Assembly (NCBI GenBank): GCA_016196885.1
Contig: JACPWU010000021.1
Span: 30,001 to 62,000, forward strand
Length of the DNA stretch: 32,000 bases
Direction: 5' to 3'
DNA from: Chlamydiota bacterium
Lineage (GTDB): Bacteria > Auribacterota > JACPWU01
The position numbers were made by a program, and so were the translations under genes. The notes beneath the pieces are model-generated. The model was not told the DNA's origin, ran no database searches, and was given only the letters and a program-made list of their open reading frames with translations. Shown here in pieces: positions 2,003-30,859 of this stretch (its first letter is position 1; each line of letters starts with the position of its first letter).

Positions 2003-2420
2003 TGTCATTTCGAACGAGCCAAGGCGAGTGAGAAATCTTGTTTTTAACGCTAGCCCACGTTTCATCTGAAAATAGTCTTTAGTTATTCTTATACAATAAG
2101 TTATGATGACTTGTAGTCGCCCGATTCATCGGGCAGCCCCATAAATGGGGCGACTACAAGGGTGATTTTCATCCCCCTTTGTGACGGACAGTCATGGCCG
2201 CGCGAGGAACGCCTGAGTCCGCCTTGGATGCGAGGAAGACGCTCCGTGCCATGTGAGGCGTATTTTACAGTACGTCGAGCACGGCCGACCTCTCTTGCGA
2301 CGCCAGACGAGGCGGACTTGGCGCTCGCAGCAGAAATGTGATGAGAAATGTGGGCCAGAAGAAAGATTTCTCAGTCGGGCATCCCGATGTAGCATCGGGA
2401 TGCTCTTCTTCGAAATGACA
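2003..2420 (+). repeat. Composite non-coding repeat bounded by perfect 12-bp terminal inverted repeats (TGTCATTTCGAA / TTCGAAATGACA)
   Basis: The TIRs are at 2003-2014 and 2409-2420. The interior has a ~148-nt module (2052-2199), nearly identical to the reverse complement of 25313-25460, and a GC-rich structured module (about 2196-2350). It also contains an 11-bp hairpin GCATCCCGATG-tag-CATCGGGATGC (2379-2403). It fills the space between convergent genes, and the only ORF over it (2192..2395) is Arg-rich junk. Confidence 0.6.
2110..2160. repeat. Y-shaped (three-way junction) palindromic repeat, copy 1
   Basis: CTTGTAGTC-[GCCCGA ttca TCGGGC]-A-[GCCCCA taaa TGGGGC]-GACTACAAG: a 9-bp closing stem enclosing two adjacent 6-bp hairpins. 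Related copies are at 12139-12210, 25014-25070 and 25352-25402. Confidence 0.7.
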
Positions 2421-2437: not shown

Positions 2438-3220
2438 CTATTTCACGACATTTTGTCGGAGAATATATTCATCCACTTCTCTTCGCGTGAGCTGCCGCGT
2501 TTCTCCTACTTTCAAATCTCCAATTTCCAAATTTCCAATCGCCACTCGCCGAAGTTTCGAAACCTCTGATCCTACCGCTTCCAGCATCTTACGTATTTGG
2601 CGATTTTTCCCTTCCTTCAGAGTCATTTCAAGCCACGTACTGGCCTCATTTGTTTTTAGAATGTGACACTGACAGGGTTGAGTAAAAGCACCTTTATCCA
2701 ATTTAACGCCTGAACGAAGCCTTTTGATTTGATCCTCACTCAATTTTCCCCGAGCCTTGACTTCGTAAGTTTTGGGAATCCCATATTCATGATTCGTCAA
2801 AACTTCCCCTAGCTCTGTGTCGTTTGTGAAAAATAAAAGGCCGGTGGTATTGGCATCCAAGCGCCCCACCGGAAAAACTCGAACGCTTAATTTAGGAAGA
2901 AATTGATAGACCGTTGTTCGGCCTTCAGGATCTTGAGCGGTCGTGATTACATCCAAAGGTTTATTGAGAACGAGGTAAATTTTAACTTGAGACCGGGCAA
3001 TCTTGCCATCCCATTCAATCACATCCTCTTCCACCCACGTTCGATGCTCCGGATCTCTCACCACCCGGTGATTCACCTTCACGCGACCGGCACGAATCCA
3101 CTGACCTGCCTCACTGCGAGAAACAATTCCCAATTTCGAAAGGACCCTGGCCAAGCCGTGTCCACCCCTTCTTTCAGGCGTTCTAGATTTTTCTTTGGAA
3201 TAAAATTTTTTATGCCTCAT
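2438..3220 (-). CDS. RNA pseudouridine synthase, RsuA/RluB family (S4 domain plus catalytic domain)
   Basis: 260-aa ORF with an ATG at 3220. It has an S4-like N-terminus (LARVLSKLGIVSRSEAGQWIRAGRVKVN) and the catalytic motif PVGRLDANTTGLLFFTND. Its start overlaps the 3' end of tsaC by 11 nt, indicating an operon. Confidence 0.85.
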   Translation of the reverse strand: MRHKKFYSKEKSRTPERRGGHGLARVLSKLGIVSRSEAGQWIRAGRVKVNHRVVRDPEHRTWVEEDVIEWDGKIARSQVKIYLVLNKPLDVITTAQDPEGRTTVYQFLPKLSVRVFPVGRLDANTTGLLFFTNDTELGEVLTNHEYGIPKTYEVKARGKLSEDQIKRLRSGVKLDKGAFTQPCQCHILKTNEASTWLEMTLKEGKNRQIRKMLEAVGSEVSKLRRVAIGNLEIGDLKVGETRQLTRREVDEYILRQNVVK

Positions 3221-4190
3221 TTTTTTGACCCGCCGCCTTTCGAAGACGATTCATGATGGCTCGTCCCAATCCTTCTTCTGGGACCCTTTCTGCATCAATT
3301 TCCTGAAGTCCTGCATCATCCAAATGGTGGAGCGCGGAAAATAAATTTGCAGCTGCCTCTTTAAAATCCCCACTCACAGACAAAATTTCAATATGCCCGT
3401 AATGAAGAGAACGTGAAGGAGCTCGAAAACACAGAAGCCCTATTTTCTCTGAAGCATTTTCTCTATATTGACCTCTTGAAATAAGGTTTACACGGGTTCT
3501 GGGCGAATAATGTCGCGCCATTTGACCTGGGGCTAAAATAGACGAAGGATTTTCAATACCCTCTCTTACAGGGCCAATCACTTTTTCAATTTTTTCAAGC
3601 ACCCATCCCCCCGGTCTCAAAAGACAAGGCACCTTTTGGCTGAAATCTATAATCGTGGACTCTACACCGATTGAACAAGGACCGCCATCCAAAATGAGAT
3701 CAACCTTTTCTCCAATTTGATCCATCACATGCTGCGCGGTTGTCGGGCTTAAATATTCAAAAGGATTTGCGCTGGGCGCCGCAATCGGACACTTGCTCTG
3801 GCGAATCAAATCCAGTGCGATCGGGTGGTTCGGTATCCGCAGCGCCACAGAAGGAAGTCCGGCCGTCACAATGTCTGGAACGATTTTTTTCTTTGGGAGA
3901 ATCACCGTCAAAGGGCCCGGCCAAAACTTCTCCATTAATTTTTTAGCCTTTTCAGGAATAGAAGCAGCCAATGAATCTATTTGAGAGAAATCTGCTACAT
4001 GAACAATAATGGGGTCCAATCGAGGCCGATTCTTTACTTCAAAAATTTTCGCCACCGCCATGGGATCCAACGCATTGGCCCCCAAACCATACACGGTTTC
4101 CGTTGGAAAAGCGACCAATCCACCTTGCTGAATCAAAAGGGCCGCTTGATGAAGAATTTTGGGGGAAGAATTAACCAAATGAACTGTCAT
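3210..4190 (-). CDS. tsaC: L-threonylcarbamoyladenylate synthase (Sua5/YwlC-type TsaC with C-terminal Sua5 domain)
   Basis: YrdC-fold signature GGLVAFPTETVYGLGANA, KIFEVKNRP and a long C-terminal domain. I place the start at the ATG at 4190 (MTVHLVNSS...) with AAGGA upstream. The track ORF start at 4274 would translate through repeat element A. Confidence 0.85.
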   Translation of the reverse strand: MTVHLVNSSPKILHQAALLIQQGGLVAFPTETVYGLGANALDPMAVAKIFEVKNRPRLDPIIVHVADFSQIDSLAASIPEKAKKLMEKFWPGPLTVILPKKKIVPDIVTAGLPSVALRIPNHPIALDLIRQSKCPIAAPSANPFEYLSPTTAQHVMDQIGEKVDLILDGGPCSIGVESTIIDFSQKVPCLLRPGGWVLEKIEKVIGPVREGIENPSSILAPGQMARHYSPRTRVNLISRGQYRENASEKIGLLCFRAPSRSLHYGHIEILSVSGDFKEAAANLFSALHHLDDAGLQEIDAERVPEEGLGRAIMNRLRKAAGQKNEA

Positions 4191-4205
4191 AATAAAATTT
4201 TCCTT

Positions 4206-4368
4206 GAGAAGTGGGTGGTCCGACTGGGGGTCCCCCGACAAGCGCCAGCAGGTGGAGTCAACGGCTTCTAACAATAACCTATCAAGAACTGACCCGACAC
4301 CGACCCCACAGGGGGGCTATAACCTCTGTGCCGTTGTCGGGGGTGAGGAGGAACAGGACCCACTTCTC
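4206..4368 (-). repeat. Structured intergenic repeat, copy A (candidate cis-RNA element inside the suf-tsaC transcript)
   Basis: It shares about 110 conserved nt with 4940-5089. The outer stem is GAGAAGTGGGT (4206-4216) / ACCCACTTCTC (4358-4368). The long-range stem is CCCCCGACAA (4232-4241) / TTGTCGGGGG (4334-4343). It fills the sufT-tsaC spacer almost exactly. Confidence 0.55.
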
Positions 4369-4372
4369 ATCT

Positions 4373-4921
4373 TTAAAACCCCAACTGCAACTTCGCCGCC
4401 TCTGACATCATGCTCATATTCCAAGGGGGATCCCACACCCATTGCACATCGGCGTCTCTCACCCCTGGAATGCTTAAAATCTTGGTCTTTGCATCGGTCG
4501 CAAGGATAGACCCCATTCCGCAACCTGGCGCCGTCAAAGTCATTTTAACTTCAACCTTATTTCCACCTTCAGCCAAAGGCATGACACGGCAATCATAAAC
4601 CAAACCCAACTCTACAATATTAATGGGAATCTCGGGATCAAAACAGGTTCTTAATTGATCCCAAACCATTTTTTCAATATCCGCCCCCTCTGAAGCTTGA
4701 GGAGCTCTTGCCTCTGGTGGAATTTCTTTTCCAAGCGCGTCTGCATCCTTTCCCTCAATTCTCACCATGTAAAGCTCAGGCGTAATCACCGTGTAAGAAC
4801 CGCCCAAAGTTTGAGTGAGGGTGACCACCGAGCCACAACGCAGCATCATGGGCGTCCCATCCGGTATCTGAATAGCCGGGCAGTCCCGCGTTAAACTAAC
4901 TCGTTCTTGTGTTTTCATCAT
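4373..4921 (-). CDS. sufT: Fe-S cluster assembly protein SufT (N-terminal domain plus DUF59/MIP18-like domain)
   Basis: 182-aa ORF with GGAGG 8 nt upstream of ATGATG. The DUF59 core is DPEIPINIVELGLVYD...MTLTAPGCGMG. It sits in the suf operon after sufU. Confidence 0.75.
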   Translation of the reverse strand: MMKTQERVSLTRDCPAIQIPDGTPMMLRCGSVVTLTQTLGGSYTVITPELYMVRIEGKDADALGKEIPPEARAPQASEGADIEKMVWDQLRTCFDPEIPINIVELGLVYDCRVMPLAEGGNKVEVKMTLTAPGCGMGSILATDAKTKILSIPGVRDADVQWVWDPPWNMSMMSEAAKLQLGF

Positions 4922-4939
4922 TCACTCTACCTCCAACAA

Positions 4940-5089
4940 AGCGGGTGTCCCGACTGGGGGTCCCCCACTGTGCGCCAGCAGGTGGAGTCCTACATCTCCT
5001 TACTTCCATATGTGACTTTCCCGACACCGACCCCACAGGGGCTATAACCTCTGTGCCGACAGTGGGGGTGAGGAGGGACAGGCCCCGCT
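4940..5089 (-). repeat. Structured intergenic repeat, copy B (same family as 4206-4368)
   Basis: The outer stem is AGCGGG (4940-4945) / CCCGCT (5084-5089). The long-range stem is CCCCCACTGT (4972-4981) / ACAGTGGGGG (5059-5068). The conserved blocks are identical to copy A. It fills the sufU-sufT spacer. Confidence 0.55.
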
Positions 5090-5096
5090 ACCTTAA

Positions 5097-5558
5097 TTAC
5101 ACATTATCCTCTGTCGTCACGGCCTGACCCCTTTTTCCCAGGGCTGCCTTCAAGGTATGCCAAGCCAGCGTGGCACATTTTACCCGTGTGGGATATTCCG
5201 AGACACCGGAAAAAACAGCCAATTTACCCAGTAATTTTAAATCGAAACCAGCGTTTGTCGGACCCGAAAGCATTTTGTGAAAATTTTGGAACAATAGAAG
5301 AGCCTCCTGCTTCGTCTTGCCTTTTACCCCTGTCGTCATCATCGATGCCGAGGATTTCGAAATTGCGCAACCCGATCCTTGAAAACCGATGTCCTGGATT
5401 TGATCCCCTTTCATTTGCAAATAAAGATTCAGACGATCCCCACACAAAGGGTTATAGCCTTCCGCCACATGATCCGCATTTTCAATCGCATGAAAGTTGC
5501 GGGGATTTTTGTTATGATCCAAAATCATTTCTTGATAGAGTTCATTTAATTCGCTCAT
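5097..5558 (-). CDS. sufU: SUF-system NifU/IscU-like Fe-S scaffold/sulfur-transfer protein SufU
   Basis: 153 aa with LYQEMILDHNKNPRN, NPLCGD, GSGCAISKSSASMM and a C-terminal CATLAW motif. The ATGA overlap with the sufS stop is at 5555-5558. Confidence 0.85.
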   Translation of the reverse strand: MSELNELYQEMILDHNKNPRNFHAIENADHVAEGYNPLCGDRLNLYLQMKGDQIQDIGFQGSGCAISKSSASMMTTGVKGKTKQEALLLFQNFHKMLSGPTNAGFDLKLLGKLAVFSGVSEYPTRVKCATLAWHTLKAALGKRGQAVTTEDNV

Positions 5559-6850: not shown

Positions 6851-8127
6851 AGCAACCTTCCCAACAACACCTCCTCCACCCTCTGCCGCACCGGCTCCAG
6901 CCGAATCTGATCCGTCACTTCATGCATAAACCCATAGGTTAAAAGCCTTCGAGCGGCTGCCTCCCCCAACCCTCGGGTCTTCAAATAAAAAAGGGGCTCT
7001 TCTTCCAATTGACCCACAGCAGCTCCATGCGTACACTTCACATCATCCGCCAAAATTTCCAATTGGGGTCTTGTGTCCACTTTGGCATCCTTTGAAAGCA
7101 AAAGATTTTGATTGGTCTGCTGTGCATCCGTTTTTTGAGCGCCGTGCCTCACCAAAATCTTTCCATAAAAAACGGCCGTGGACCGCCCCGACAAGACGCC
7201 TTTATAAAGCTGACGGCTGGTTCCCTGAGGAAAGGCATGATCCACAAAAGTGGTGTTATCCACATGCTGGCCTTCTTCTGTCCAATAAAGCCCATTTGAA
7301 ACACACTCACTGCCTTCCCCGCGAAGGGTCATATTTAAATCATTGCGAACCAACTTTCCAGAAAGGGTGGCAACGGCATGAGAAAAAAAACTGTTCCGTT
7401 CTTGGTTCACATAAGAAGACCCGATGTGAAATGCTTTTCCCCCTTGTTTCTGGATTTGAATCAACTCTAGCCTGGCCCCTTCTTTCAAAACCATTTCTGT
7501 TAAAGGACTCGAGAAATAAACTTCTCCATCCAACCCCACATGACTTTCCACCACGGTCGCTTCACTGTGCTCATTCAACACGAAAAGATTTCTTGGGAAA
7601 ATGGCCTCAGGCCTCTGGCAAGAATAAATAAAAAGAAAATGAATCGGATGCTGGATTTTAGCCCCTTTCGGAATTTCCAAAAAAAGCCCCTCTTGAAAAA
7701 GAGCCGTGTTTAAAGCATCCAACGGCTTTTCTTTTCTCTCTTGGTCGAAATATTTTTGAAAACTTTTTTCATGGACAGCTTCTCTTAAAGATTTTATCTG
7801 GAGCCCTTGAGATTTTCGGGAAAGAGACTCCGTATAAAACCCATTCACAAAAACCAAACGGTCTGCGGGTAAATCTTCTAAGAAGAGAGGCCCTGGGGAG
7901 AGAGGCAAAGAAGGAGGGTGAAAAGAAATTTCGTAAGGGGTATTCACCACCTGTGAAACATCCGTATATTTCCACTCTTCCCTCTCTTGAGTCGGGAAGC
8001 CCAGAGGGGAAAATTGGTCAAAGGCTTTTTGACGAAGGGCTCGAAGGAAAGAGCCCTCCTTTTGCCTTTGAAGAAATTCAAAGGCTGAAACAAAAGAATC
8101 CATTTTAGAAACGAACCCAGCGCTCAC
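6847..8127 (-). CDS. sufD: Fe-S cluster assembly protein SufD
   Basis: 426 aa in the suf operon between sufC and sufS. A C-terminal beta-helix region resembles SufB/SufD (QQTNQNLLLS..A.VDTRPQLEI.ADDVKCTHGAAVG). The GTG at 8127 lies 5 nt after GAGGAGG; an alternative ATG is at 8103. Confidence 0.85.
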   Translation of the reverse strand: MSAGFVSKMDSFVSAFEFLQRQKEGSFLRALRQKAFDQFSPLGFPTQEREEWKYTDVSQVVNTPYEISFHPPSLPLSPGPLFLEDLPADRLVFVNGFYTESLSRKSQGLQIKSLREAVHEKSFQKYFDQERKEKPLDALNTALFQEGLFLEIPKGAKIQHPIHFLFIYSCQRPEAIFPRNLFVLNEHSEATVVESHVGLDGEVYFSSPLTEMVLKEGARLELIQIQKQGGKAFHIGSSYVNQERNSFFSHAVATLSGKLVRNDLNMTLRGEGSECVSNGLYWTEEGQHVDNTTFVDHAFPQGTSRQLYKGVLSGRSTAVFYGKILVRHGAQKTDAQQTNQNLLLSKDAKVDTRPQLEILADDVKCTHGAAVGQLEEEPLFYLKTRGLGEAAARRLLTYGFMHEVTDQIRLEPVRQRVEEVLLGRLL

Positions 8128-8898: not shown

Positions 8899-8949
8899 GC
8901 CCGCCTCCAACCTTTGAACTTTTGAACCCTTAAACTTTTGAACCTTTTT

Positions 8950-11085: not shown

Positions 11086-12024
11086 TCAGGTAAAGGCTTG
11101 CTCTAAAACGGGGGAGGGTCTTGAAGCAGAGCGGCTCTCTTTGCGAGCGAGGGATTTCTCGGCGTGGAGCCTTGCCCGTAGAATTCTTTCTGGAGGAATG
11201 CGTGTTAAATCCTTTGCCATTTTAAAAAAGCCCATCAGAGAGATCAGCCACTTGCTGGGATCCCAGTGATACCAACGAATTCCATTGCGATAATCGCCTG
11301 GGAAACGGTGATGAAAACTGTGATACCCTTCTCCCAGCGTGACCAATGCAACCAACCCATGGTCCTTTGCATTTACCTCTGGATCATAGGTGGCCTTTCC
11401 AATCCAATGGCAAAGAGAATTGATGCAAAAGGTGGCTTGTTGAACGAAAAAGATCCGAAAACAAACCGCTGTGAAAAAAGTGCTCCATCCATGGCCGGCC
11501 ATGATTCCAAGGGTCCATGGAACGAGAATCCCAGACACCAACGCCCAGACCCCATAATATTGATGCTGATTCATGATGATTTTATTTTTTTGAAGGTCTT
11601 TGACGTTTTCGTAAACCTTGGGCTGTTTCCAAAAAATAAGCCATCCGATATGGGCATGCCAAAACCCTTGTTTCATGCTATAGGGGTCTCTTTTCGTGTC
11701 GGGATAGAGATGATGAGAGCGATGCTGGGAAGCCCATTTCAGGGCAGACTGTTCAAAGGCACCCGCTCCGAAAAAAAGAAAGAGGAACTTTACAAAGGAA
11801 GGAACTTTGTAAGAGACATGCGCAAAGAGGCGATGATAGCCCATCGTTACACTCAACCCCGTCGCAGCCACATAAAAGAAGAAGAGTAAAAGGTCAAACC
11901 TTGAAATGCCATGGGAAAAAATATAAAGGGGCATCCCGATCACGGCAAGAGCCGCACTCACAACCATAAAAAGGAATATCCCCCACTGCATTCCCCTTTC
12001 TGGATAAATCAAAGAATCCGACAT
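11086..12024 (-). CDS. Membrane fatty-acid (acyl-CoA/acyl-lipid) delta-9-type desaturase
   Basis: Three His boxes (GYHRLFAH, QHRSHHLYPD, EGYHSFHHRFPGDY) and hydrophobic N-terminal helices. The ATG at 12024 is 4 nt after GGGAGGGG; the track start at 12027 is a GTG. Confidence 0.85.
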   Translation of the reverse strand: MSDSLIYPERGMQWGIFLFMVVSAALAVIGMPLYIFSHGISRFDLLLFFFYVAATGLSVTMGYHRLFAHVSYKVPSFVKFLFLFFGAGAFEQSALKWASQHRSHHLYPDTKRDPYSMKQGFWHAHIGWLIFWKQPKVYENVKDLQKNKIIMNQHQYYGVWALVSGILVPWTLGIMAGHGWSTFFTAVCFRIFFVQQATFCINSLCHWIGKATYDPEVNAKDHGLVALVTLGEGYHSFHHRFPGDYRNGIRWYHWDPSKWLISLMGFFKMAKDLTRIPPERILRARLHAEKSLARKESRSASRPSPVLEQAFT

Positions 12025-12116
12025 CACCCCTCCCTCTGAAAAGAATTCATATGAAAAGAACTCACAAATGATACTATCTTTAAAAAGAGGAGCAAGTCCT
12101 TTTTTAAATTTTTAAT

Positions 12117-12247
12117 AGGCATATGCACTTGATTCCCCTAGTAGTCGCCCGATTCATCGGGCAATCCATGCAAGGGGCACAAGGCTGCCCCATCAATGGG
12201 GCGACTACAAATTCTTGCTATCTGAGGGGAATCAAGTGCATATGCCT
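12117..12247. repeat. 131-nt compound palindrome: a 22-bp perfect inverted repeat enclosing Y-junction repeat copy 2
   Basis: AGGCATATGCACTTGATTCCCC (12117-12138) pairs with GGGGAATCAAGTGCATATGCCT (12226-12247). Between them lies TAGTAGTC-[GCCCGA ttca TCGGGC]-insert-[GCCCCA tcaa TGGGGC]-GACTACAA (12139-12210). Confidence 0.7.
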
Positions 12248-12251
12248 AATT

Positions 12252-12427
12252 TTTAAAAGTGTGTCCTTTATTCATGCGGGTGACACCCAACAGGGTCCCC
12301 ATCAAGTGCCAGAAGAAAGAGTCATTTGCATCAGCCATACATCTGGCATCCCTCATCGAGACCGATGCCGTTGATGGGGTGGTTGGGCGGCAGGACCCGC
12401 CCCCTTTCCAAAGGACACACTTTTAAA
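12252..12427. repeat. 176-nt MITE-like element with perfect 18-bp terminal inverted repeats and an extended internal hairpin
   Basis: TTTAAAAGTGTGTCCTTT (12252-12269) pairs with AAAGGACACACTTTTAAA (12410-12427). Internal pairings include CCCCATCAA/TTGATGGGG, CCCAAC/GTTGGG, GCGGGT/ACCCGC and TGCCAGA/TCTGGCA. There is no credible ORF. Confidence 0.6.
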
Positions 12428-12563
12428 TACATCATCATCAAAAATAGGTAGACACTTCTAGGAAAAATTATGAGATAATTCGAACAAAGAAGGAGTCTCG
12501 ACCCTGAAACGAATTTTCATATTCTTAAGCATTTTTCTTCTTTCAGCCTCTCTGGCCTTGGCC

Positions 12564-13246: not shown

Positions 13247-13276
13247 GAGGGGTAGAAGGTGATATAGATATTCTCT

Positions 13277-13370
13277 GATAAGGGCAAACTATCCGTAAGG
13301 ATAGGACGCAAAGCCATGGGCCCCTGGGTAGCTAGGGAGGGGGGTCGCCAGGTTGCCGGAGCATAGGCTG
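13277..13370 (+). promoter_or_regulatory. c-di-GMP-I (GEMM-I)-like riboswitch aptamer
   Basis: 13281-13315 reads AGGGCAAAC-UAUCC-GUAA-GGAUAG-GACGCAAAGCC. These are the two hallmark GEMM-I blocks around a 6-bp hairpin capped by a GNRA tetraloop. A second helix region follows (GCC-AUG 13313-18 / CAU-A-GGC 13362-68; CCUGG 13323-27 / CCAGG 13348-52). The aptamer boundaries are approximate. Confidence 0.75.
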
Positions 13371-13380
13371 AAGAGTCAAG

Positions 13381-13431
13381 AAAAGCGTCTATTCTTTTAC
13401 GGAAGTGAAAGAATAGACGCTTTTCTTTTTT
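13381..13431 (+). terminator. Intrinsic terminator (riboswitch expression platform)
   Basis: A perfect 17-bp stem, AAAAGCGTCTATTCTTT (13381-13397) / AAAGAATAGACGCTTTT (13408-13424), has a 10-nt loop and is followed by CTTTTTT. Confidence 0.8.
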
Positions 13432-13846: not shown

Positions 13847-16800
13847 ATGATGAAGTCCAACTGGATGAAGAGGGGGATTGTGTCATGCATCTTGGGAGTG
13901 GGGTTGTGGGGAAGCGCCAGTCTCTTTTCATTTTCTGATGAAGAAAAGAAATACGCCCCCGATGAATTGCTCGTCCGCTATAAACCAGGGGTTTCGAGTG
14001 CCCAAATCCGGCAGTTGAGAAAGGCCATCCATGCCGAACGTCTCGAGAAGTTTTCCATCAATGATGTGCAGCATTATAAACTCGAGGCCGGTCAGTCTCT
14101 TCAAGAAGCTCTTTCAGAGTTAAAGGGTTCCTCCAAAGTTCTTTACGCAGAACCCAATTATGTTGTGGAGTTAAATCAAACCCCCAACGATCCCGACTTT
14201 TCCAAACTCTACGGAATGAATAACACCGGCCAGACCGGCGGTACAGCTGACGCCGACATTGATGCCCCCGAGGCTTGGAATACACAGACTGGAAATCAGA
14301 ACCTCGTGATCGCGATTATTGATACGGGCGTGGACTACAACCATCCGGATCTGGCAGCAAATATCTGGACCAATCCCAAGGAAATTGCAGGCAACGGCAT
14401 AGACGATGACGGCAACGGTTACGTGGACGATATTCATGGTTGGGATTTTTATAACAAGGACGCCGATCCCATGGATGATCATTACCATGGCACTCACGTA
14501 GCGGGCACCATTGCAGGAGTGGGCAATAACGGCATCGGTGTGACAGGCGTGGTCTGGAAAGCCAAGATCATGGCACTTAAATTCTTGAGCTCGGGTGGAT
14601 CGGGATACACTTCAGGTGCGATTTCGGCGATCAATTATGCCACTCAAATGGGCGCAAAAATTTCCAATAACAGCTGGGGGGGCGGGGGCTATTCGCAGGC
14701 CTTGAAAGATGCCATCACGGCCAATCAGAATGCAGGGGCTTTGTTTGTAGCCGCTGCAGGAAATAGCGGCGTCAATGCAGACACTTCTCCCATGTATCCC
14801 GCGGCTTATGACGTGGCCAATATTATTTCTGTGGCTGCGACGGACGCTAAAGATCAATTGGCCTCTTTTTCAAATTATGGAAAAACCAGCGTGGATTTAG
14901 GGGCCCCGGGGGTGAGTATTTACAGCACTGCTCCCAACAACACGTATAAAACCTTAAGTGGGACTTCCATGGCAACCCCTCATGTCGCGGGAGCGGTCGC
15001 CTTAATCTGGTCTCAATTTCCGAGCCTGACGAATCTTCAGGTGAAAGATAAATTGCTCGTCTCCACAGATCCGATTTCAGCCCTGTCTGGAAAAACGGTG
15101 AGCGGGGGAAGGCTCAACATCAATAATTTTATGGAGAATGACACGACGGCCCCGGCCCCTGTCACTAATTTAGCCACTTCCAGCGTTTCCTATTTTACCA
15201 CCACACTCACGTGGACAGCGACGGGAGACGATGGTTTCACAGGACAGGCAAGCACCTATGATTTGCGCTATTCTACGAGTGCCATCACAGAGTCTAATTT
15301 TTCCTCGGCCCTTCAGGCGTCCGGGCTCCCCTCACCTAAGACTTCAGGACAGACAGAGACTTTTAAGGTGACAGGACTTTCTTCCAACACGGCTTATTAT
15401 TTTGCACTCAAGGTGAAGGACAACGTGGGAAATACTTCTTCCCTTTCGAATGTGATTTCAGCCACCACCTCTCAGGGAACCACTTTCTACCAGGATAATT
15501 TTGAGAATGGCCAGGGAAGTTGGGTCACAGGAGGAACAAACGGCACGGGTGGAGGGACCTTGTGGCATCTTTCAACCCGTAAATCCAACAGTGCGACCCA
15601 TTCCTTCTATTATGGCAGTGAGTCCAAGGGTAATTACAACACAGGACAAGCCAATTATGGTTGGATCACTTCTCCCAAAATTTATTTAACCTCGGCTACC
15701 AATTCCACTTTGATTTTTAACCACTATCTGACGACGGAGAATCTGGCCCCCTATGATGAAGGAAGTGTCAGAATTTCAACAGACGGCGGATCCACTTTTA
15801 CAACGCTCAACAAATTCTATTCAACCAGCTCAAAATGGCAACAGGTTTCCGTAGATCTTTCGAAATATGATGGGAAAACCGTCTACATTCAATTTTATTT
15901 TACGACGCTGGACGCGCTCTACAACAGTTATGAAGGTTGGTATGTGGACGATGTGCAGGTGATGGCAGATGGGCAAGGTGACACCACACCTCCTGCCGCG
16001 ATCAGTAATTTGGCAATTTCTTCTCTGGGTCAATATTCCCTGACATTGAACTGGACGGCGACAGGAGACGATGGGAATACGGGAACAGCCTCTTTCTACG
16101 ATTTACGCTACTCCACGAGCACCATCACAGATTCCAACTTTTCTTCGGCCGTTCAAGTCTCAGGCCTCTCTTCCCCGAAGGCGGCCGGAAATTCCGAATC
16201 CTTTGAAGTGAAGAATCTTTCCAGTGGAGTCACTTATTATTTTGCGATCAAGGCCACGGACGATCTTTCCAATACCTCCGCTATTTCAAACGGGGTGAAT
16301 GGAAAAACAAAAACGGGACCCAAAATCAGCGTGTCTCCCAGCACCCTTGCGAAAGTCAGTTTGGATGTTGGGAAATCAACCACACAGTCCCTGACGATCC
16401 AAAACACAGGCGATGAAAATTTGACATTTGACATCACAGAAATTCCGACAACCACCGCCAGCAGTGCTGAATCTTCCTCCTCTTTGGAAACGGGATCGAG
16501 CGCGTCAGCTGCCTATGCACCTTCCCAAATTTTGGTGAAATTTAAAGAGGGCCTGTCTGAGGCAGCCATTCATGGACTCGGAGATTCAGTGGACGCAAGA
16601 ACCGTTAAAATTTATTCCGACATTGATGTCCATTTGATTGAAACCGCTTCAGGATTGGATGCCCAGGAAATGGCCAGAATGTACCTGGCGAGCGGCTTGG
16701 TAGAATATGCAGAACCCAATTATGTTGTTCAAGCCTTAAGTACCTTCCCCAACGATTCTTCTTTCTCTCAACTCTACGGCCTTCACAACACAGGACAAAC

Positions 16801-19800
16801 GGGGGGAACCGCAGATGCGGACATTGACGCCCCTGAGGCCTGGGACACTACAAAGGGGGCAAGCTCGGTCGTGGTGGCAGTGATTGACACGGGTGTAGAT
16901 TACACACATCCTGACTTATCAGCCAACATGTGGACAAACTCAGGAGAAATCCCAAACAATGGATTGGACGATGACGGAGATGGTTATGTGGACGACTATC
17001 GAGGATGGGATTTTGTGAACGAAGACAATGATCCTATGGATGACAATAAGCATGGCACACACGTTTCCGGAACCATTGGTGGAGTTGGAAACAACGGTAC
17101 AGGCGTCGCCGGTGTTTGTTGGAACGTCAAAATCATGCCTCTTAAATTCTTAAGTGGGAGTGGGTCTGGATACACCTCGGATGCAGTCGAGGCCGTTCTT
17201 TACGCCAATAAAAAAGGTGCGAATGTGATGAGCAACAGCTGGGGCGGCGGCGGATATTCTCAGGCCCTGTATGACGCTATTAAAGCGGCCGAGGTGAAAG
17301 GCATTCTCTTCGTAGCCGCCGCGGGAAATAGCTCGAGCAACAATGATCAAGTGGCCAATTATCCCTCGAATTACAACATCTCGAACGTCATTGCCGTCGC
17401 AGCCACAGATGCGAACGATGCCCTGGCCTGGTTTTCAAATTATGGAGCGAACACGGTTCATTTGGGCGCCCCGGGGGTCAGCATCTATAGTACCCTGCCG
17501 GGAAACACCTATGGCTCTTTGAGTGGAACTTCCATGGCGACCCCCCATGTAGCTGGGGCTTGTGCCCTCGTGTGGTCCGCGAATCCTTCCTGGAATTATG
17601 CGAAAGTGAAAAATCAGATCATGGTGGGCACAGATAAAATTTCGAGCATGAGTGGTAAAACAGTTTCAGGCGGTCGGCTGAATGTTTACAAAGCCCTTCA
17701 AGCGGCAGAAACCACGCCTCCCTCAGCCGTCACCGATTTGTCCAGCTCCATGGTTTCTTTTTCCACCCTTAAACTTAAATGGACGGCAACGGGGGATGAT
17801 GGCAATACCGGAACAGCCACCTCTTACGAGATTCGTTATTCTACAAGTTCTATCACGAGTTCTAACTTTAGTTCCGCTACGTTGATCAGCAATACCCCCA
17901 CACCCAAATCTGCTGGAGGGGCTGAAGAATTCAACGTCACAGGCCTTTCCCAAAAGACAACTTATTACTTTGCCATGAAAGTGACCGATGATGCCAGCAA
18001 CACCTCTGGCCTTTCGAATGTGACCTCTGCCACCACAGACGAAGCGGTGGTAACCTACTTGGATAGCATGGAAACAGGAGCCGGATGGACGGTGACAGGC
18101 TTGTGGCATCTTTCCACACGAAAATCTAACAGCCCCACGCATTCTTTCTATTATGGAGACGAGACCAAAGGAAATTACGATACAGGTTCTACCACCCAAG
18201 GGACGCTGACATCCTCTACCATCGACCTTTCATCGGGGGTCACGCCTCAACTCTCTTTTCAATATTGGAGAAAAGTGGAGTCGGGAGGGATCTATGACAA
18301 AACCTATTTAGAAATTTCAAAAGACAATGGCTCCAATTGGACCCAGCTTTGGTACAAGAACTCCAGCAACACCTCTGAACAAGCCTGGACCAGTTCTGGA
18401 CCCTTGGATTTAAGCTCTTACAAAGGCGCTAAAGTCCTTTTGAGATTTACCTTTGATTCTGTGGATGCCTACTTGAATTTTTATGAAGGATTCTACGTGG
18501 ATGATGTTCAAATCTTGGATTCAAAAACAGATTTTAACTGGCTCTCCGTGCAACCAGCAACAGGAACCTTAACAGCCAATCAATCTAGCACCGTGACCTT
18601 AACCTACACAGCCGTTTCTAGCGGAACTTACAAAGGAGCCATTCTGATTAAGAGCAATGACCCTGCCAAACCCTCTACCACCCTTTCTCTAGAGTTGACA
18701 GCCACTCAAGACACAACAGCCCCCTCCGCCATCAGCAATTTAAAAGTTGCCTCCATTGCCAGCAGCAACACCTCTCTAACCCTGACATGGACAGCGCCAG
18801 GCGATGACGACAACGTGGGAACGGCCAGCTCTTATGAAATTCGCTACTCTACAAGCCTCATAACAGATGCTAATTTCAGCGCGGCCACTTTGGCTCCAAA
18901 TCCACCCACGCCCCAAGTCGCGGGAAGCACTGAAACCTTCAGCCTGACAGGGCTCGCCCTTTCACAAAATTATTATTATGTTGCGATCAAGACCCAGGAC
19001 GATGTGGGGCAAGTTTCTAGCCTCTCCAATGTGGTCAAGACGAGTGACTTGGATTCCGATGGGGACGGGTTGTGCGACCAAGATGAGTACAGCATGGGCA
19101 CAGATCCTCTCAAGTCAGATACAGATTCCGATGGGTTCAGCGATGGCCAGGAAAAATCGATTGGGACGGATCCTGTGAAGAGCACAGATTTCCCAGCCAC
19201 GATTATTCTGACATGCGACAATGCCTATGAAATTTACATCAATGGTGTCTTCAAAGGGAATGACTCTAATTGGACAAACAAAGAAACATATTATGCAAAG
19301 TTAGGAGACACCATCGCCATTAAAGGCATAGATCTCGGCGGCATTGCAAGTCTCCTTTGCCAAATCAGCCATGGAAATAAAATCATGCCTTCCAATTTTC
19401 TCTGGAAGGCTTCACCTCAAGCCGCCTCGGGCTGGACAAATCCAAACTTTGACGACTCTTCTTGGCCAGGTGCAGTAGAACATTTTGCATACGGACATGG
19501 GCCCTGGGAACAATGGGTGAACGGATTTGACGCCAGCAACAATTGGATCTGGACGAATCGGCCGGAGGAACATGATACTGTCTATTTTCGGCGGAAGGTG
19601 GACTTTTCACAAAATGCCCTCTTACGGGTTACGGCAGATAATGCCTTTGAAGCTTGGCTGGATGGTCAATACCTGGGATCCAGCAATGTGTGGCATCTGC
19701 CCAAATTTTTTATTGGGACTGTCAGTGAAGGCAGCCTCATCGCCCTTCACGGGATAGACCTGGGAGGGATAGGAGGACTGCTTGCCTCTCTTACCTACGT

Positions 19801-20953
19801 GGACTCGAATGGAAAAAGGCAAATGGTAGGAACCAACTCCTCATGGAAAATAAGTACCACATCCTCCTCGGGCTGGCAAAACACAGGCTTTGACGAAAAC
19901 AGCTGGTCCTCAGCGACAGAGTGGGCTGCCTTCGGAAGTGGGGTGTGGGGTTCTTTTGACATGGGTGCCCATTTTTCGAATGCAAGCCAAGCCAAGTGGA
20001 TTTGGGCCTCGGACCCCTATTCTATCGATGACATCTATGCGAGAAAAACGATCCTCACCCCCAACGCAACACTCAGCATGACGGCGGACAACAAGTTCAA
20101 AGTTTATCACAATGGGAACCTCGTTGCCTCCAGCTCCCAATGGTGGTCCCCCGCCGTCGTCGGTCTTAATAATCTCCAAAATGGAGACGTCATTGCTGTG
20201 AGGGCCGATGATGAAGGAGGCATTGCAGCGTTTCTTGCAAAGCTGGACTTTAATGGAACTCAAATCTTCTCAAATACAACATGGAAGGCCTCCACAGGAC
20301 CTTTCTGGGAAGCAGACCTCTCTTGGACGTCAAAAAGCTATGACGACTCGAACTGGACAAGCGCCTTCCCAGTCGGAGGCAACGGAATATCCCCGTGGGG
20401 ATATTTGTCTGACTGTGGGAGTGCGCAATGGATTTGGGCCTCATCAGACACGGACGGTGTCAACACCTCTTTTTTTAGGTGGACGGTGGGAACCAACAAT
20501 ACAGAAGTAGGTGTAACCTCTTTTCTGGTCAGCGCAGACAATGAATACAAGTTCTACAAGAATGGTGTGCTCATCACATCAGGAAGTCGGTGGTATATGC
20601 CGGAGAGCTTCACATGTTTATTATCCCCTGGGGATGTCATTGCGATCGAGGCAAGAGATTATGGTTATAAAGCGGGACTTTTGCTCTACGCCTCCGGGGC
20701 TTATAACCTCGTCTCGGACAGCTCTTGGAAAATGAGTACCACCGAACAGTCGGGAGGATGGGCGAGTAAAACATTTGACGACTCTGGCTGGGCTTCAGCC
20801 AGTGATCACGGGGCCTACGGCATTGCACCTTGGGGAAGCAATGCTTCAGGATTCCCAACCAGTTCTTCAGCTCGTTGGATTTGGGGCCCCAACAATCAGA
20901 CTGGGGCAACAAACATTGATTCCCACGTCTTCTTCAGAAAGAAAATTGCTTAA
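13847..20953 (+). CDS. Giant secreted multidomain protein (2368 aa) with two complete I9-propeptide + S8 subtilase modules, FN3-like, MAM/lectin-like and Ig-like domains, TSP3-like Ca-binding repeats and four C-terminal beta-sandwich repeats
   Basis: Signal peptide at aa 1-30. Triad 1 is D159 (IIDTG, nt 14321), H214 (HGTHVAG, nt 14486) and S374 (GTSMATPHVAG, nt 14966). Triad 2 is D1014 (nt 16886), H1069 (nt 17051) and S1229 (nt 17531). The second I9-like segment is at aa 889-963. DxDxDG repeats are at aa 1733-1780. Four ~145-aa repeats (ADNxFxxYxNG...GDVIA...GGI.GLLA...W.....GW....FDDSxW...WIW...FR) span aa 1785-2368. Confidence 0.85.
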   Translation: MMKSNWMKRGIVSCILGVGLWGSASLFSFSDEEKKYAPDELLVRYKPGVSSAQIRQLRKAIHAERLEKFSINDVQHYKLEAGQSLQEALSELKGSSKVLYAEPNYVVELNQTPNDPDFSKLYGMNNTGQTGGTADADIDAPEAWNTQTGNQNLVIAIIDTGVDYNHPDLAANIWTNPKEIAGNGIDDDGNGYVDDIHGWDFYNKDADPMDDHYHGTHVAGTIAGVGNNGIGVTGVVWKAKIMALKFLSSGGSGYTSGAISAINYATQMGAKISNNSWGGGGYSQALKDAITANQNAGALFVAAAGNSGVNADTSPMYPAAYDVANIISVAATDAKDQLASFSNYGKTSVDLGAPGVSIYSTAPNNTYKTLSGTSMATPHVAGAVALIWSQFPSLTNLQVKDKLLVSTDPISALSGKTVSGGRLNINNFMENDTTAPAPVTNLATSSVSYFTTTLTWTATGDDGFTGQASTYDLRYSTSAITESNFSSALQASGLPSPKTSGQTETFKVTGLSSNTAYYFALKVKDNVGNTSSLSNVISATTSQGTTFYQDNFENGQGSWVTGGTNGTGGGTLWHLSTRKSNSATHSFYYGSESKGNYNTGQANYGWITSPKIYLTSATNSTLIFNHYLTTENLAPYDEGSVRISTDGGSTFTTLNKFYSTSSKWQQVSVDLSKYDGKTVYIQFYFTTLDALYNSYEGWYVDDVQVMADGQGDTTPPAAISNLAISSLGQYSLTLNWTATGDDGNTGTASFYDLRYSTSTITDSNFSSAVQVSGLSSPKAAGNSESFEVKNLSSGVTYYFAIKATDDLSNTSAISNGVNGKTKTGPKISVSPSTLAKVSLDVGKSTTQSLTIQNTGDENLTFDITEIPTTTASSAESSSSLETGSSASAAYAPSQILVKFKEGLSEAAIHGLGDSVDARTVKIYSDIDVHLIETASGLDAQEMARMYLASGLVEYAEPNYVVQALSTFPNDSSFSQLYGLHNTGQTGGTADADIDAPEAWDTTKGASSVVVAVIDTGVDYTHPDLSANMWTNSGEIPNNGLDDDGDGYVDDYRGWDFVNEDNDPMDDNKHGTHVSGTIGGVGNNGTGVAGVCWNVKIMPLKFLSGSGSGYTSDAVEAVLYANKKGANVMSNSWGGGGYSQALYDAIKAAEVKGILFVAAAGNSSSNNDQVANYPSNYNISNVIAVAATDANDALAWFSNYGANTVHLGAPGVSIYSTLPGNTYGSLSGTSMATPHVAGACALVWSANPSWNYAKVKNQIMVGTDKISSMSGKTVSGGRLNVYKALQAAETTPPSAVTDLSSSMVSFSTLKLKWTATGDDGNTGTATSYEIRYSTSSITSSNFSSATLISNTPTPKSAGGAEEFNVTGLSQKTTYYFAMKVTDDASNTSGLSNVTSATTDEAVVTYLDSMETGAGWTVTGLWHLSTRKSNSPTHSFYYGDETKGNYDTGSTTQGTLTSSTIDLSSGVTPQLSFQYWRKVESGGIYDKTYLEISKDNGSNWTQLWYKNSSNTSEQAWTSSGPLDLSSYKGAKVLLRFTFDSVDAYLNFYEGFYVDDVQILDSKTDFNWLSVQPATGTLTANQSSTVTLTYTAVSSGTYKGAILIKSNDPAKPSTTLSLELTATQDTTAPSAISNLKVASIASSNTSLTLTWTAPGDDDNVGTASSYEIRYSTSLITDANFSAATLAPNPPTPQVAGSTETFSLTGLALSQNYYYVAIKTQDDVGQVSSLSNVVKTSDLDSDGDGLCDQDEYSMGTDPLKSDTDSDGFSDGQEKSIGTDPVKSTDFPATIILTCDNAYEIYINGVFKGNDSNWTNKETYYAKLGDTIAIKGIDLGGIASLLCQISHGNKIMPSNFLWKASPQAASGWTNPNFDDSSWPGAVEHFAYGHGPWEQWVNGFDASNNWIWTNRPEEHDTVYFRRKVDFSQNALLRVTADNAFEAWLDGQYLGSSNVWHLPKFFIGTVSEGSLIALHGIDLGGIGGLLASLTYVDSNGKRQMVGTNSSWKISTTSSSGWQNTGFDENSWSSATEWAAFGSGVWGSFDMGAHFSNASQAKWIWASDPYSIDDIYARKTILTPNATLSMTADNKFKVYHNGNLVASSSQWWSPAVVGLNNLQNGDVIAVRADDEGGIAAFLAKLDFNGTQIFSNTTWKASTGPFWEADLSWTSKSYDDSNWTSAFPVGGNGISPWGYLSDCGSAQWIWASSDTDGVNTSFFRWTVGTNNTEVGVTSFLVSADNEYKFYKNGVLITSGSRWYMPESFTCLLSPGDVIAIEARDYGYKAGLLLYASGAYNLVSDSSWKMSTTEQSGGWASKTFDDSGWASASDHGAYGIAPWGSNASGFPTSSSARWIWGPNNQTGATNIDSHVFFRKKIA

Positions 20954-24779: not shown

Positions 24780-24876
24780 AAGGGAATCTCCAGAGGACAG
24801 AACTCAGAATACAGAATAAATACAACTCCTTAATCATTCTGACTTCTGAGTTCTGTCTTCTGTCTTCCGATCTATT

Positions 24877-24892
24877 AGTTCCACGTGGAACA
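24877..24892. promoter_or_regulatory. parS: parS centromere-like site (AGTTCCACGTGGAACA)
   Basis: It matches 14 of 16 positions of the widely conserved parS consensus TGTTNCACGTGAAACA. It lies about 100 bp upstream of parA. Confidence 0.7.
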
Positions 24893-25012
24893 AAATAATG
24901 ATACATGGCTTATACAAAAGAAAGCAAGATTTTTGATGAGCAAAATTAAGAAATCCGCCTTTTTTATTGTGGGTGACTCTGAAAGGGTCCCTCCAAGTTA
25001 TTCTGGAAATTG

Positions 25013-25460
25013 ATTGTAGTCGCCCCATTTATGGGGCCATGCATGGATTGCCCGATAAATCGGGCGACTACGCTTGACGGATCAAGAATACTTGAGCCAA
25101 GTCCATATGCCAAAATTTATTTCTCCGACAGGCTCCTAGCCCGCATTTCTCATCAGATTTCGTCGCGAGTCCGCCTAAGGTGGATTGGAGGGGAGGTTGC
25201 ACGACTGAGGCCATGCGAGGCATACCTTACAGTATGTTGAGCGTGGCCGACCGAGTCTGCACGGAGGGACGAAGCGGAATCGGAGAAGAGCGGCAGAAAT
25301 CTGACGAGAAACGGCCATGACTTTCAGTCACAAAGGGGGATGAAAATCACCCTTGTAGTCGCCCCATTTATGGGGCTGCCCGATGAATCGGGCGACTACA
25401 AGTAATCATAACTTATTGTATAAAAATAAGTAAAGACTATTTTCAGATGAAACGCGGGCT
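25013..25460 (-). repeat. Second copy of the composite repeat (Y-junction copies 3 and 4, a 148-nt conserved module and a GC-rich structured module)
   Basis: 25313-25460 is the near-identical reverse complement of 2052-2199. The Y copies are at 25014-25070 and 25352-25402. The GC-rich module, 25140-25320, is closed by a 16-bp stem (25146-25161 / 25296-25311). The only ORF (25010..25240) is implausible. Confidence 0.6.
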
Positions 25461-26115: not shown

Positions 26116-26160
26116 GAAAACCTCCTTTCATTAAGAGCAGTGAATAGCACTTAAATGTTT

Positions 26161-26176
26161 TGTTCCACGTGGAACA
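26161..26176. promoter_or_regulatory. parS: parS centromere-like site (TGTTCCACGTGGAACA) at the centre of a 32-nt perfect palindrome
   Basis: It matches 15 of 16 positions of the consensus TGTTNCACGTGAAACA. The palindrome AAATGTTTTGTTCCACGTGGAACAAAACATTT spans 26153-26184. Confidence 0.75.
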
Positions 26177-26186
26177 AAACATTTAA

Positions 26187-29646: not shown

Positions 29647-30315
29647 TTATTTTGAGGCAATACTAACATCCTTGATTACTTGGGGCAGGTATAAATTCAT
29701 CCAAGAGGTTTGTTTCTGAGAAAGAACCTCTTTTGTCCCAATACCCTTTGTCATTTCAAAACAGCCATTCATTTGAATTAAGAGTTCACGGACCTCTAAG
29801 CTTTCTGAAAGATTCTCCAAGGCCTTTCTAAATTCACTCGGGTAACTCGCATGAAGAAGGCATAGGTCATAAATATCTGTAGGTTCAATTCGATCCACAA
29901 CACAATAGAGTTTCTCCAGGATCATGTCTTTTTCAGATAAAATCGGGCACCGAAGTTCGGGCTCATAAAGCAATGTGACCGGACGCCAAATTTTTCCAAT
30001 ATCGACTTTTGTTTCAAGTTTGGGATATCTGATATACAGTTGACAGAAGTGTTCTCCACGACGCGTAATTCTATATTTAACCTTCTCAAGATTACACTGC
30101 TTCACAAGCTCAAGCATCGCCTTGTAACTAGAGATTTCTTCTTTCGGGGAGAGAATATCTACGTCCTTACTGTTGCGCGCATGTTGTGGAAGTCTTAAGG
30201 TTAGCCACGTTCCTCCCGAGAGGGCATAATTTTTACGGATGAGCGGACATTTTAAAATCCATTTGGCAAGTGATAAAATATCTTGCCTTGAAGGCTCTTC
30301 AGGCATTTTTTTCAT
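29647..30315 (-). CDS. Nucleotidyltransferase-fold protein, AbiEii/DUF1814-like candidate toxin
   Basis: The Pol-beta-type NTase motif is ALSGGTWLTLRLPQHARNSKDVDIL (hGG...DxD), with a later acidic residue (TKVDIG). It overlaps the upstream HTH gene by 17 nt (or 8 nt if the ATG at 30306 is used). Confidence 0.5.
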   Translation of the reverse strand: MKKMPEEPSRQDILSLAKWILKCPLIRKNYALSGGTWLTLRLPQHARNSKDVDILSPKEEISSYKAMLELVKQCNLEKVKYRITRRGEHFCQLYIRYPKLETKVDIGKIWRPVTLLYEPELRCPILSEKDMILEKLYCVVDRIEPTDIYDLCLLHASYPSEFRKALENLSESLEVRELLIQMNGCFEMTKGIGTKEVLSQKQTSWMNLYLPQVIKDVSIASK

Positions 30316-30703: not shown

Positions 30704-30859
30704 GATTTTATTATACACTATTTTGAACAATTTTTGAAAAATTTTGGGATGGTAGACTTTGGTCAAATGGACTGGATTTGATTCGGGAATTTTAAAGGTT
30801 AAAGATTTTAAGTATTTTAACCCTTGGACGTTTGAACTTTTCAACCCTTAAACTTTTTT

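Follow-up and report, generated by a model that had tools for sequence, protein, structure and literature searches.

Introduction

Several families of small structured repeat are known from bacterial intercistronic spacers. REP and BIME sequences are known stabilisers of intercistronic mRNA, as at malE-malF, and it has been argued that REPs and REPINs are recognised as single-stranded hairpins by RAYT or IS200-IS605-type Y1 transposases. ERIC sequences exert an orientation-dependent effect on the stability of the flanking mRNA, and Correia elements carry terminal inverted repeats (TIRs), are accompanied by a target duplication and give rise to transcripts that are processed by RNase III. The bcr1 repeats of the Bacillus cereus group and the RPE repeats of Rickettsia are small, non-coding and lineage-restricted, with predicted RNA hairpins that are kept by compensatory changes, and some of them are co-transcribed with the genes beside them. 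Here we analyse a structured element that is present in two copies, A and B, within the suf operon of an uncultured Chlamydiota bacterium. The sequence under study, referred to below as the window, is a stretch of 32,000 nt (positions 30,001 to 62,000 of the forward strand of contig JACPWU010000021.1, assembly GCA_016196885.1) from a metagenome-assembled genome (MAG).

The element is most likely a previously undescribed, lineage-restricted structured repeat. The family is known from four copies in one MAG, of which two (C and D) are full-length, arm-bearing members and two (A and B) are arm-less cores. The perfect inverted arms of C and D are a feature of miniature inverted-repeat transposable elements (MITEs), as is the small, dispersed and non-coding nature of the family, and the occurrence of such a TIR-bearing, GC-rich element in a repeat-rich genome suggests a MITE- or REPIN-like identity. 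On this evidence A and B are probably two copies of a small, dispersed repeat family whose rod-like hairpins are GC-rich and non-coding and behave as selfish elements of the MITE/REPIN type.

Two copies of one element fill spacers of the suf operon

The genes of the operon are arranged on the minus strand in the order Rrf2 regulator, sufB, sufC, sufD, sufS, sufU, copy B, sufT, copy A, tsaC/Sua5 and an rluB-like gene, and the suf-operon gene names proposed in the initial annotation of this DNA agree with NCBIfam, including those for sufU (5097-5558), sufT (4373-4921) and tsaC/Sua5 (3210-4190), all on the minus strand. The same annotation had placed two copies of an element on the minus strand, that is in the operon sense, and both are indeed present, each filling its spacer. 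Copy A (4206..4368, minus strand; 170.9 bits with the covariance model (CM) described below) is a core-only member that occupies the sufT-tsaC spacer: it begins 5 nt beyond the stop codon of sufT, and its other end is 15 nt short of the tsaC ATG and directly abuts the AAGGA Shine-Dalgarno sequence of tsaC. Copy B (4940..5089, minus strand; CM match 4935-5094, 179 bits), also a core-only member, occupies the sufU-sufT spacer. The two are direct copies lying 725-730 nt apart and bracketing sufT. A two-block pattern describing the element matched twice in the window and not once in 100 shuffles.

With the element subtracted, the two spacers measure approximately 19 nt and 25 nt, and each keeps an intact Shine-Dalgarno sequence. 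The sufU-sufT spacing in an unrelated lineage is 15 nt, which is comparable, and both copies thus have the look of insertions placed after a stop codon and ahead of a ribosome-binding site. The GC content of the element is 58-64%, compared with 46% for the window. No promoter or terminator was found in A, in B or between them, and an intrinsic terminator or promoter identity for the element was accordingly dropped. A 2-nt indel shifts every reading frame between A and B, and a word-indexed search of the element's translation found nothing in 5.8 billion protein clusters, so that the element is read as non-coding. Translations were also used to look for further copies through spurious open reading frames: 1.84 billion representatives searched in full with HMMER returned three weak matches, the best being a 53-aa tandem-repeat open reading frame (ORF) with 28% identity, which was judged spurious.

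Alignment of A with B reveals a mosaic of conservation. The core is identical at 92 of 95 aligned columns, and comprises four blocks in which 18/19, 39/41, 18/18 and 17/17 positions are the same, the sole difference in the second block being the 2-nt CC indel. In contrast, the inner five nucleotides of the long-range helix, P3, share 0/5 positions on the 5' arm and 0/5 on the 3' arm, and the apical loop of 30-33 nt is identical at only 12 of 34 positions. This variable apical segment is 33 nt long and AT-rich in copy A (4260..4292) and 30 nt long in copy B (4990..5019), both on the minus strand. Two independent Logan assemblies, SRR12113387 (L001) and SRR12113416 (L002), both begin inside copy B, exactly at the block common to copy A; the break is explained by the repeat that B shares with A.

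A hypervariable helix segment remains perfectly paired

P3 is a 10-bp helix in which five pairs are variable. Its 5' arm reads CCCCC-GACAA in copy A (4334..4343), the last five nucleotides being the variable ones, and CCCCC-ACTGT in copy B (5059..5068); the 3' arms read TTGTC-GGGGG (4232..4241) and ACAGT-GGGGG (4962..4971), respectively, all on the minus strand. As originally described, GACAA/TTGTC and ACTGT/ACAGT are both perfectly complementary. Over the four copies A-D there are four distinct P3 variants, in which all 20 variable pairs are Watson-Crick with no G.U; five pairs are changed on both sides, and 97% of cells are paired. None of 500 shuffles reached the level of covariation seen in the four copies, and the P3 signal was lost when the pairing partners were slid by 1 to 3 columns. 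Covariation, which the initial annotation had put forward as a test of the structure, is thus strong in P3. The outer stems, P1, also differ yet pair, being an 11-bp GAGAAGTGGGT/ACCCACTTCTC stem in A and AGCGGG/CCCGCT in B, as had been pointed out, with one U-A to C-G swap within a common GYGGG/CCCRC.

Two further structural claims stood only in part. The inner helix CGGCAC/GUGUCG is possible, but it is not chosen by minimum-energy or consensus folds, where it competes with CAGAGGU/ACCUGCUG, and it loses one pair (C.A) in copy C. The complementarity of CCUCC to the downstream ribosome-binding sites is true at the sequence level but trivial, since any Shine-Dalgarno sequence pairs with CCUCC. 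Folds carried through the start codons predict no sequestration, and anti-Shine-Dalgarno masking by the CCUCC loop was dropped as a candidate mechanism. The folding energies of A (z = -2.9) and B (z = -1.1) are unexceptional for their base composition, and the plus strand of both copies folds about as well as the minus strand. The structure also contains conserved asymmetric internal loops, namely CCUCCUCA opposite ACCCCCAGUC, and GGUUAUAG.

Further copies lie at unrelated loci of the same contig

The contig was walked by means of window-encoded proteins and one extra protein search, with contig JACOUD010000001.1 (121 kb) of assembly GCA_016178005.1, a MAG named Chlamydiae bacterium, as the reference record; positions 53.7-108.7 kb of that record were covered. 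The window and the record are 99.7-99.99% identical over aligned stretches, no difference touches the elements, and SufT is identical in the two.

Copy C (minus strand, 169 bits) lies at positions 7208-7366 of retrieved sequence L016, about 1 kb to the right of the window, downstream of yidC and with a small-ORF/PIN toxin-antitoxin pair on its other side. Its core is approximately 90-95% identical to A and B, and the inner segment of its P3 is a third variant, GCTGA/TCAGC, again perfectly paired. P4 of copy C carries one G-C to G-U change. A CM built from A, B and C was then used as a query, and found copy D (12270..12406, minus strand; 26.3 bits, E about 5e-4 to 9e-4 over 53-95 kb), a diverged member that lies between two divergent genes, upstream of the one for a fatty-acid desaturase (11086-12027). 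Copy D keeps P1 (GCGGG/CCCGC), P3 and the base of P4, and its P3 is a fourth perfect variant, CCCC-ATCAA/TTGAT-GGGG; the apical half, the CCUCC loop and the CCUCCUCA loop are swapped for unrelated sequence. The fold of copy D has a z of -5.7.

C and D both sit between the same inverted arms, TATTTAAAAGTGTGTCCTTT ... AAAGGACACACTTTTAAA, which match perfectly over at least 18 bp, and over 20 bp in C. In copy D the left outer arm, TATTTAAAAGTGTGTCCTTT, lies at 12410..12429 and has an 18-nt core identical to that of the copy C arm, and the right outer arm, AAAGGACACACTTTTAAAAA, lies at 12250..12269, both on the minus strand. The end of the right arm is interrupted by a separate 133-nt MITE (12116-12248), whose insertion there produced an 8-bp duplication, TTAAAAAT. 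The 18-nt arm core, TTTAAAAGTGTGTCCTTT, occurs exactly four times in the sequence examined, always as the arm pairs of C and D, and the arm-bearing members have the arm motif TTTAAAAGTGTGTCC. A and B have no terminal arms and only the internal P1 pairing. Copy C is additionally flanked by an 8-bp direct repeat, TTAGCAAG, which lies 7 nt outside the arms, with a 5/7 inverted match between the intervening stretches; this repeat is a possible target-site duplication. By CM match the cores are 137-165 nt long, and copy C with its arms measures approximately 218 nt. The motif GGGGWSAS, found in the TIRs of RAYT-like genes (PMC3733652), is present once on the plus strand of each of A-C (GGGGTGAG) and not in D, and is a lead only.

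The family therefore comprises at least four copies in approximately 55 kb of one contig, at three unrelated loci. One explanation that these copies bear on directly is that a single suf spacer was duplicated locally, with complementarity arising by chance. The proximity and shared orientation of A and B would fit, but C and D, at distances of 28 kb and 7 kb from the suf copies, already refute it, the four P3 variants are distinct and perfectly paired throughout, and the element pattern is absent from shuffled sequence; we attach practically no weight to this explanation. The initial annotation had left a choice between a cis-acting RNA of the Fe-S biogenesis operon and an ERIC/BIME-like structured mobile repeat. 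The second is favoured here, and a dedication to the Fe-S operon is not upheld, as C and D sit at unrelated genes: the neighbours of the four copies (suf, yidC/PIN and desaturase) have no function in common, so the element is not tied to Fe-S biogenesis. The same annotation had expected a plain mobile repeat to appear as many copies in both orientations with no covariation, whereas the four copies found are all in the sense orientation and covary strongly.

Searches for relatives and for known RNA classes

The view that the element belongs to no named RNA class was borne out. At the Rfam gathering threshold the only match in the window is a c-di-GMP riboswitch elsewhere, and L016 has none; at E values of up to 10 over positions 4000-5300, the best score of 19.8 bits against a 45-bit threshold is noise. 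An HDV-like nested double pseudoknot, an attC site, a tRNA-like structure and a coding sequence were each considered and dropped, by direct reading or with ARAGORN.

Sequence searches were similarly negative. With blastn (word size 11) no real match was found in 5,426 E. coli genomes, 72,556 plasmids and 50,697 phages, a single 35-nt match being due to chance. In viral contigs, exact patterns for three core blocks gave only single-site matches with unrelated flanks, and the arm sequence pattern gave matches without a paired inverted site. A two-block, 23-base pattern run against 185,579 species genomes (one per GTDB species) and against JGI metagenomes recovered only the same unrelated Ktedonobacteraceae coding sequence, and the absence elsewhere is only as strong as that one pattern, the source MAG lying outside the scanned genome collection. 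No further family copy was found, using the CM and fuzzy patterns, in two further 10-kb contig extensions or in 32 kb of a sister MAG (GCA_016178055.1; SufT 65% identical), in which the sufS-sufU and sufU-sufT spacers hold hairpin repeats of a quite different kind. In the database of 5.8 billion proteins the next closest SufT, after the identical one, has 65% identity, which indicates that the lineage is very sparsely sampled.

The conserved loops raise the question of whether the element could be a new catalytic or ligand-binding RNA, such as a self-cleaving ribozyme or a riboswitch-like class, with a pseudoknotted core formed by the internal loops and the C and G runs. The conserved junctions and alternative pairings of the C5 and G5 runs do permit pseudoknots, for instance GGGGU with GCCCC or ACCCC; self-cleaving ribozymes are often multi-copy and repeat-associated, and the lack of a match to a known class would be expected of a new one. 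We nevertheless consider this very unlikely. No known ribozyme or riboswitch signature emerged even at the relaxed threshold, the overall fold is a simple rod, the sole informative apical substitutions, those of copy C, break three of the five pairs of the predicted P6 helix, and the apical core is absent from copy D; moreover, four sequences are too few for any tertiary model.

Comparison with known repeat systems

The closest likeness is to REP, BIME and REPIN sequences. The element is intergenic, GC-rich and multi-copy, and forms a long imperfect hairpin from two inverted halves; its spacer varies in sequence and little in length, its stems covary, and it is probably co-transcribed with its neighbours. 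Di Nocera et al. 2013 (PMC3733652) described REP dimers that are nested within longer palindromes and whose variable spacers are complementary at their ends. The family A-D differs from REPs and REPINs in that its members share no conserved terminal GTAG or CGTC tag, the halves are not two copies of one 20-40-nt unit, and it has strongly conserved asymmetric loops and a longer conserved part (approximately 95 nt). The defining tag is instead found in a separate family, GTAGTCGCCCGATTCATCGGGCA, on the same contig.

The element also resembles the ERIC/IRU sequences of enterobacteria and the Correia/NEMIS sequences of Neisseria, which are structured repeats of 100-160 nt in intercistronic spacers that form a long hairpin on operon mRNA. 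It has no sequence similarity to ERIC, BIME or Correia elements by the blastn searches of E. coli genomes (in which ERIC and BIME occur), plasmids and phages, a set that does not cover Neisseria genomes, and the target duplication of Correia elements is TA, compared with a possible 8 bp here. To our knowledge, no hypervariable paired segment has been described inside an otherwise invariant core in the ERIC and Correia families. The bcr1 and RPE repeats are unrelated in sequence and in host phylum, and RPEs often lie in frame within genes, whereas no intragenic copy was seen here.

A third likeness is to attC sites such as the Vibrio VCRs, which are imperfect palindromes of 60-140 nt with conserved ends and a variable centre, lie in the same orientation after each gene, and are recognised as a folded single strand. 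The element could act at the level of DNA, as an attC-like recombination site bounding a sufT cassette or instead as a binding site for a nucleoid or replication protein or a cruciform site. The bracketing of sufT by two direct copies, the strictly Watson-Crick nature of the variable pairs and the equal folding of the two strands all agree with such a role. Direct reading, however, showed that the RYYYAAC/GTTRRRY (R''/R') core sites of integrons are absent from the ends of A, B and C, and no integrase or recombinase is present among the called genes in 55 kb. The flanked genes are core housekeeping genes in ancestral operon order, sufT occupying the same operon position in distant lineages that lack the element, and C and D bound no cassettes. 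A DNA-level site is consequently given little credence.

Possible behaviour of the element and selection on its structure

If A and B are mobile-type repeats, the ancestral intercistronic spacers would have been short, and each copy would have inserted there after the stop codon and before the Shine-Dalgarno sequence. They are likely to be co-transcribed with sufBCDSU-sufT-tsaC, given that no promoter or terminator interrupts the stretch, and on the mRNA each would form a long rod-like hairpin of irregular pairing. What is known of REP/BIME sequences in malEFG and of ERIC and Correia elements suggests, by analogy, that this hairpin may block 3' exonucleases between cistrons and so protect the upstream mRNA, or may be cut by RNase III/E, and could thereby modestly uncouple the expression of sufBCDSU, sufT and tsaC-rluB by shifting the stability of upstream relative to downstream cistrons, with no switch specific to Fe-S metabolism. 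Recombination between the two direct copies could delete sufT. The covariation probably reflects selection, along active element lineages, for a hairpin in single-stranded nucleic acid, a behaviour also shown by REP hairpins that RAYT or IS200-IS605-type enzymes recognise; a constraint at the RNA level may add to it.

The alternative with the most to recommend it, which we rate as possible though rather unlikely, is a host-beneficial, cis-acting structured RNA, perhaps a domesticated repeat, that sets the stoichiometry of the cistrons on either side. Here a protein or RNase would bind the core, or the CCUCC loop would mask the ribosome-binding site, and the variable helix would need only to pair. 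Such a role is suggested by a core that is almost invariant in A, B and C beside neutral-looking parts that are saturated, by the strong covariation in P3 and P1, and by the fact that A and B end immediately before intact Shine-Dalgarno sequences. Each of the four copies is in the sense orientation relative to its neighbouring genes, but this has a chance probability of about 0.06-0.12. A constraint on the RNA of the sense strand is weakly favoured by the change from G-C to G-U that copy C shows in P4 and by an excess of G.U over A.C cells on that strand (13 compared with 3), in a count that is biased because the structure itself was derived on the sense strand. On the other hand, the genes next to the copies are functionally unrelated (the suf genes, yidC/PIN and the 5' region of the desaturase), copy D has its whole apical core and CCUCC loop replaced, the Shine-Dalgarno sequences are not paired with CCUCC in minimum-energy folds, and no homologue was found outside the one MAG, so that there is no sign of long-term retention. 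In addition, the mosaic of conserved core and saturated segment does not separate selection at the level of the host from selection at the level of the element: if only mobilisable copies found new ones, selection along active mobile lineages is expected to give the same pattern.

The mobile-repeat reading has its own difficulties. Only four copies are known, 10-kb extensions of the contig having added one copy in one case and none in another, so that a high copy number is unproven, and no transposase, RAYT or integrase is encoded among the called genes in the 55 kb. A target duplication is seen at one copy only, with the 7-nt offset, and A and B have neither arms nor a clear duplication. The identity of approximately 97-99% between the A and B cores beside a 5-bp segment and loop at random level is sharper than in typical MITE bursts, and the asymmetric CCUCCUCA/ACCCCCAGUC loops are unlike the prediction for a symmetric TIR bound by a transposase. 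The uniform sense orientation and the G.U excess count on the same side, with the limits given above. A further view is that the core might be a functional RNA module of a new kind, either carried by a mobile hairpin or domesticated from one, that recruits a protein or processes itself. In such a module, which we regard as distinctly unlikely, the CCUCCUCA/ACCCCCAGUC and GGUUAUAG loops would form the active surface and the 5-bp segment would be an identity feature of each copy, acting for example against mis-pairing across sufT.

Other repeats and features of the contigs

Several further repeat families accompany the family A-D. The GTAG-tagged REP family GTAGTCGCCCGATTCATCGGGCA (GTAGTCGCCC-GATTCATC-GGGCA) occurs mostly as inverted dimers, at window positions 2113-2157, 12141-12208, 25014-25071 and 25353-25399 and at positions 17976-18028 of L026 and 277-299 of L030. 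Its stems covary, CCCGAT/ATCGGG being replaced by CCCCAT/ATGGGG, and its presence in the sister Chlamydiota MAG as well implies that a RAYT-type system exists in these genomes. The 133-nt MITE that interrupts the arm of copy D has a second copy at L026 10689-10821. It has a perfect 24-bp TIR, TAGGCATATGCACTTGATTCCCCT, encloses a GTAG REP dimer and is flanked by clean 8-bp duplications of the target, TTAAAAAT and AAAGAAAG.

A third hairpin family, AACCCAGATTTTGCAATAGACGCG..., is found at window positions 1035-~1120, at L016 7025-7107 and, in the sister MAG, at L012 5064-5247. The two MAGs share almost the same arm sequences although their SufT proteins have only 65% identity, which would fit either exchange among co-occurring Chlamydiota or strong constraint. 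In the sister copy the inner part is much longer, and the whole lies within another palindrome, CCCACCACCTGTCT...AGACAGGTGGTGGG. AT-rich hairpins of short repeats of the CAGAAGT/CAGAATT type (window 24791-24862; L026 15011-15106) make up another small repeat family. An 8-nt-period tandem motif, ACYTTTGA/ACCCTTAA, is located in the sufB-sufC spacer (8910-8947) and between two genes at 30820-30857. A perfect palindrome, TTAAATGTTTTGTTCCACGTGGAACAAAACATTTAA (26151-26186), lies upstream of an ATPase_2 gene, with a second TTCCACGTGGAA site 1.3 kb away (24875-24895), and these may be operator sites.

The c-di-GMP match noted above is a c-di-GMP-I-GGC riboswitch at 13274-13361 on the plus strand (67 bits, above the gathering score). 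It is followed by a terminator-like hairpin with a T-run (13378-13427) and lies upstream of a 2368-aa ORF (13847-20953) with subtilase S8, fn3 and TSP3 domains, a setting that is unusual for a Chlamydiota genome.

Comparison of the window with JACOUD010000001.1 revealed an in-frame 69-nt deletion in the window copy of sufS (at approximately 5909), which removes NVLPYKFEAGTPHVAGAIGLGAA; this segment presumably holds a conserved SufS motif, FEAGTP. The two also differ by an 18-nt indel cluster beside a REP copy (2186-2202) and by point differences at 12194 and 30399. These differences could be strain variation, an assembly artefact or the result of editing of the window. The sister MAG encodes an 835-aa SufB (L012 1-1453) that carries a LAGLIDADG homing-endonuclease (intein) insertion; the 477-aa SufB of the window lacks it.

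Implications

A residual puzzle is the sharply bounded 5-bp segment, which is different and yet perfectly paired in every copy, beside a core that is so strongly conserved between A and B. If the favoured reading of a dispersed mobile-type repeat is true, the biology would be ordinary and the host unusual: an undescribed repeat would join REP, ERIC, Correia, RPE and bcr1. Repeats of this type break assemblies, as in the Logan contigs, and can pass for regulatory RNAs. Overall, the favoured reading would mean that palindromic repeats can heavily colonise the genomes of environmental Chlamydiota, extending even into an essential Fe-S assembly operon.

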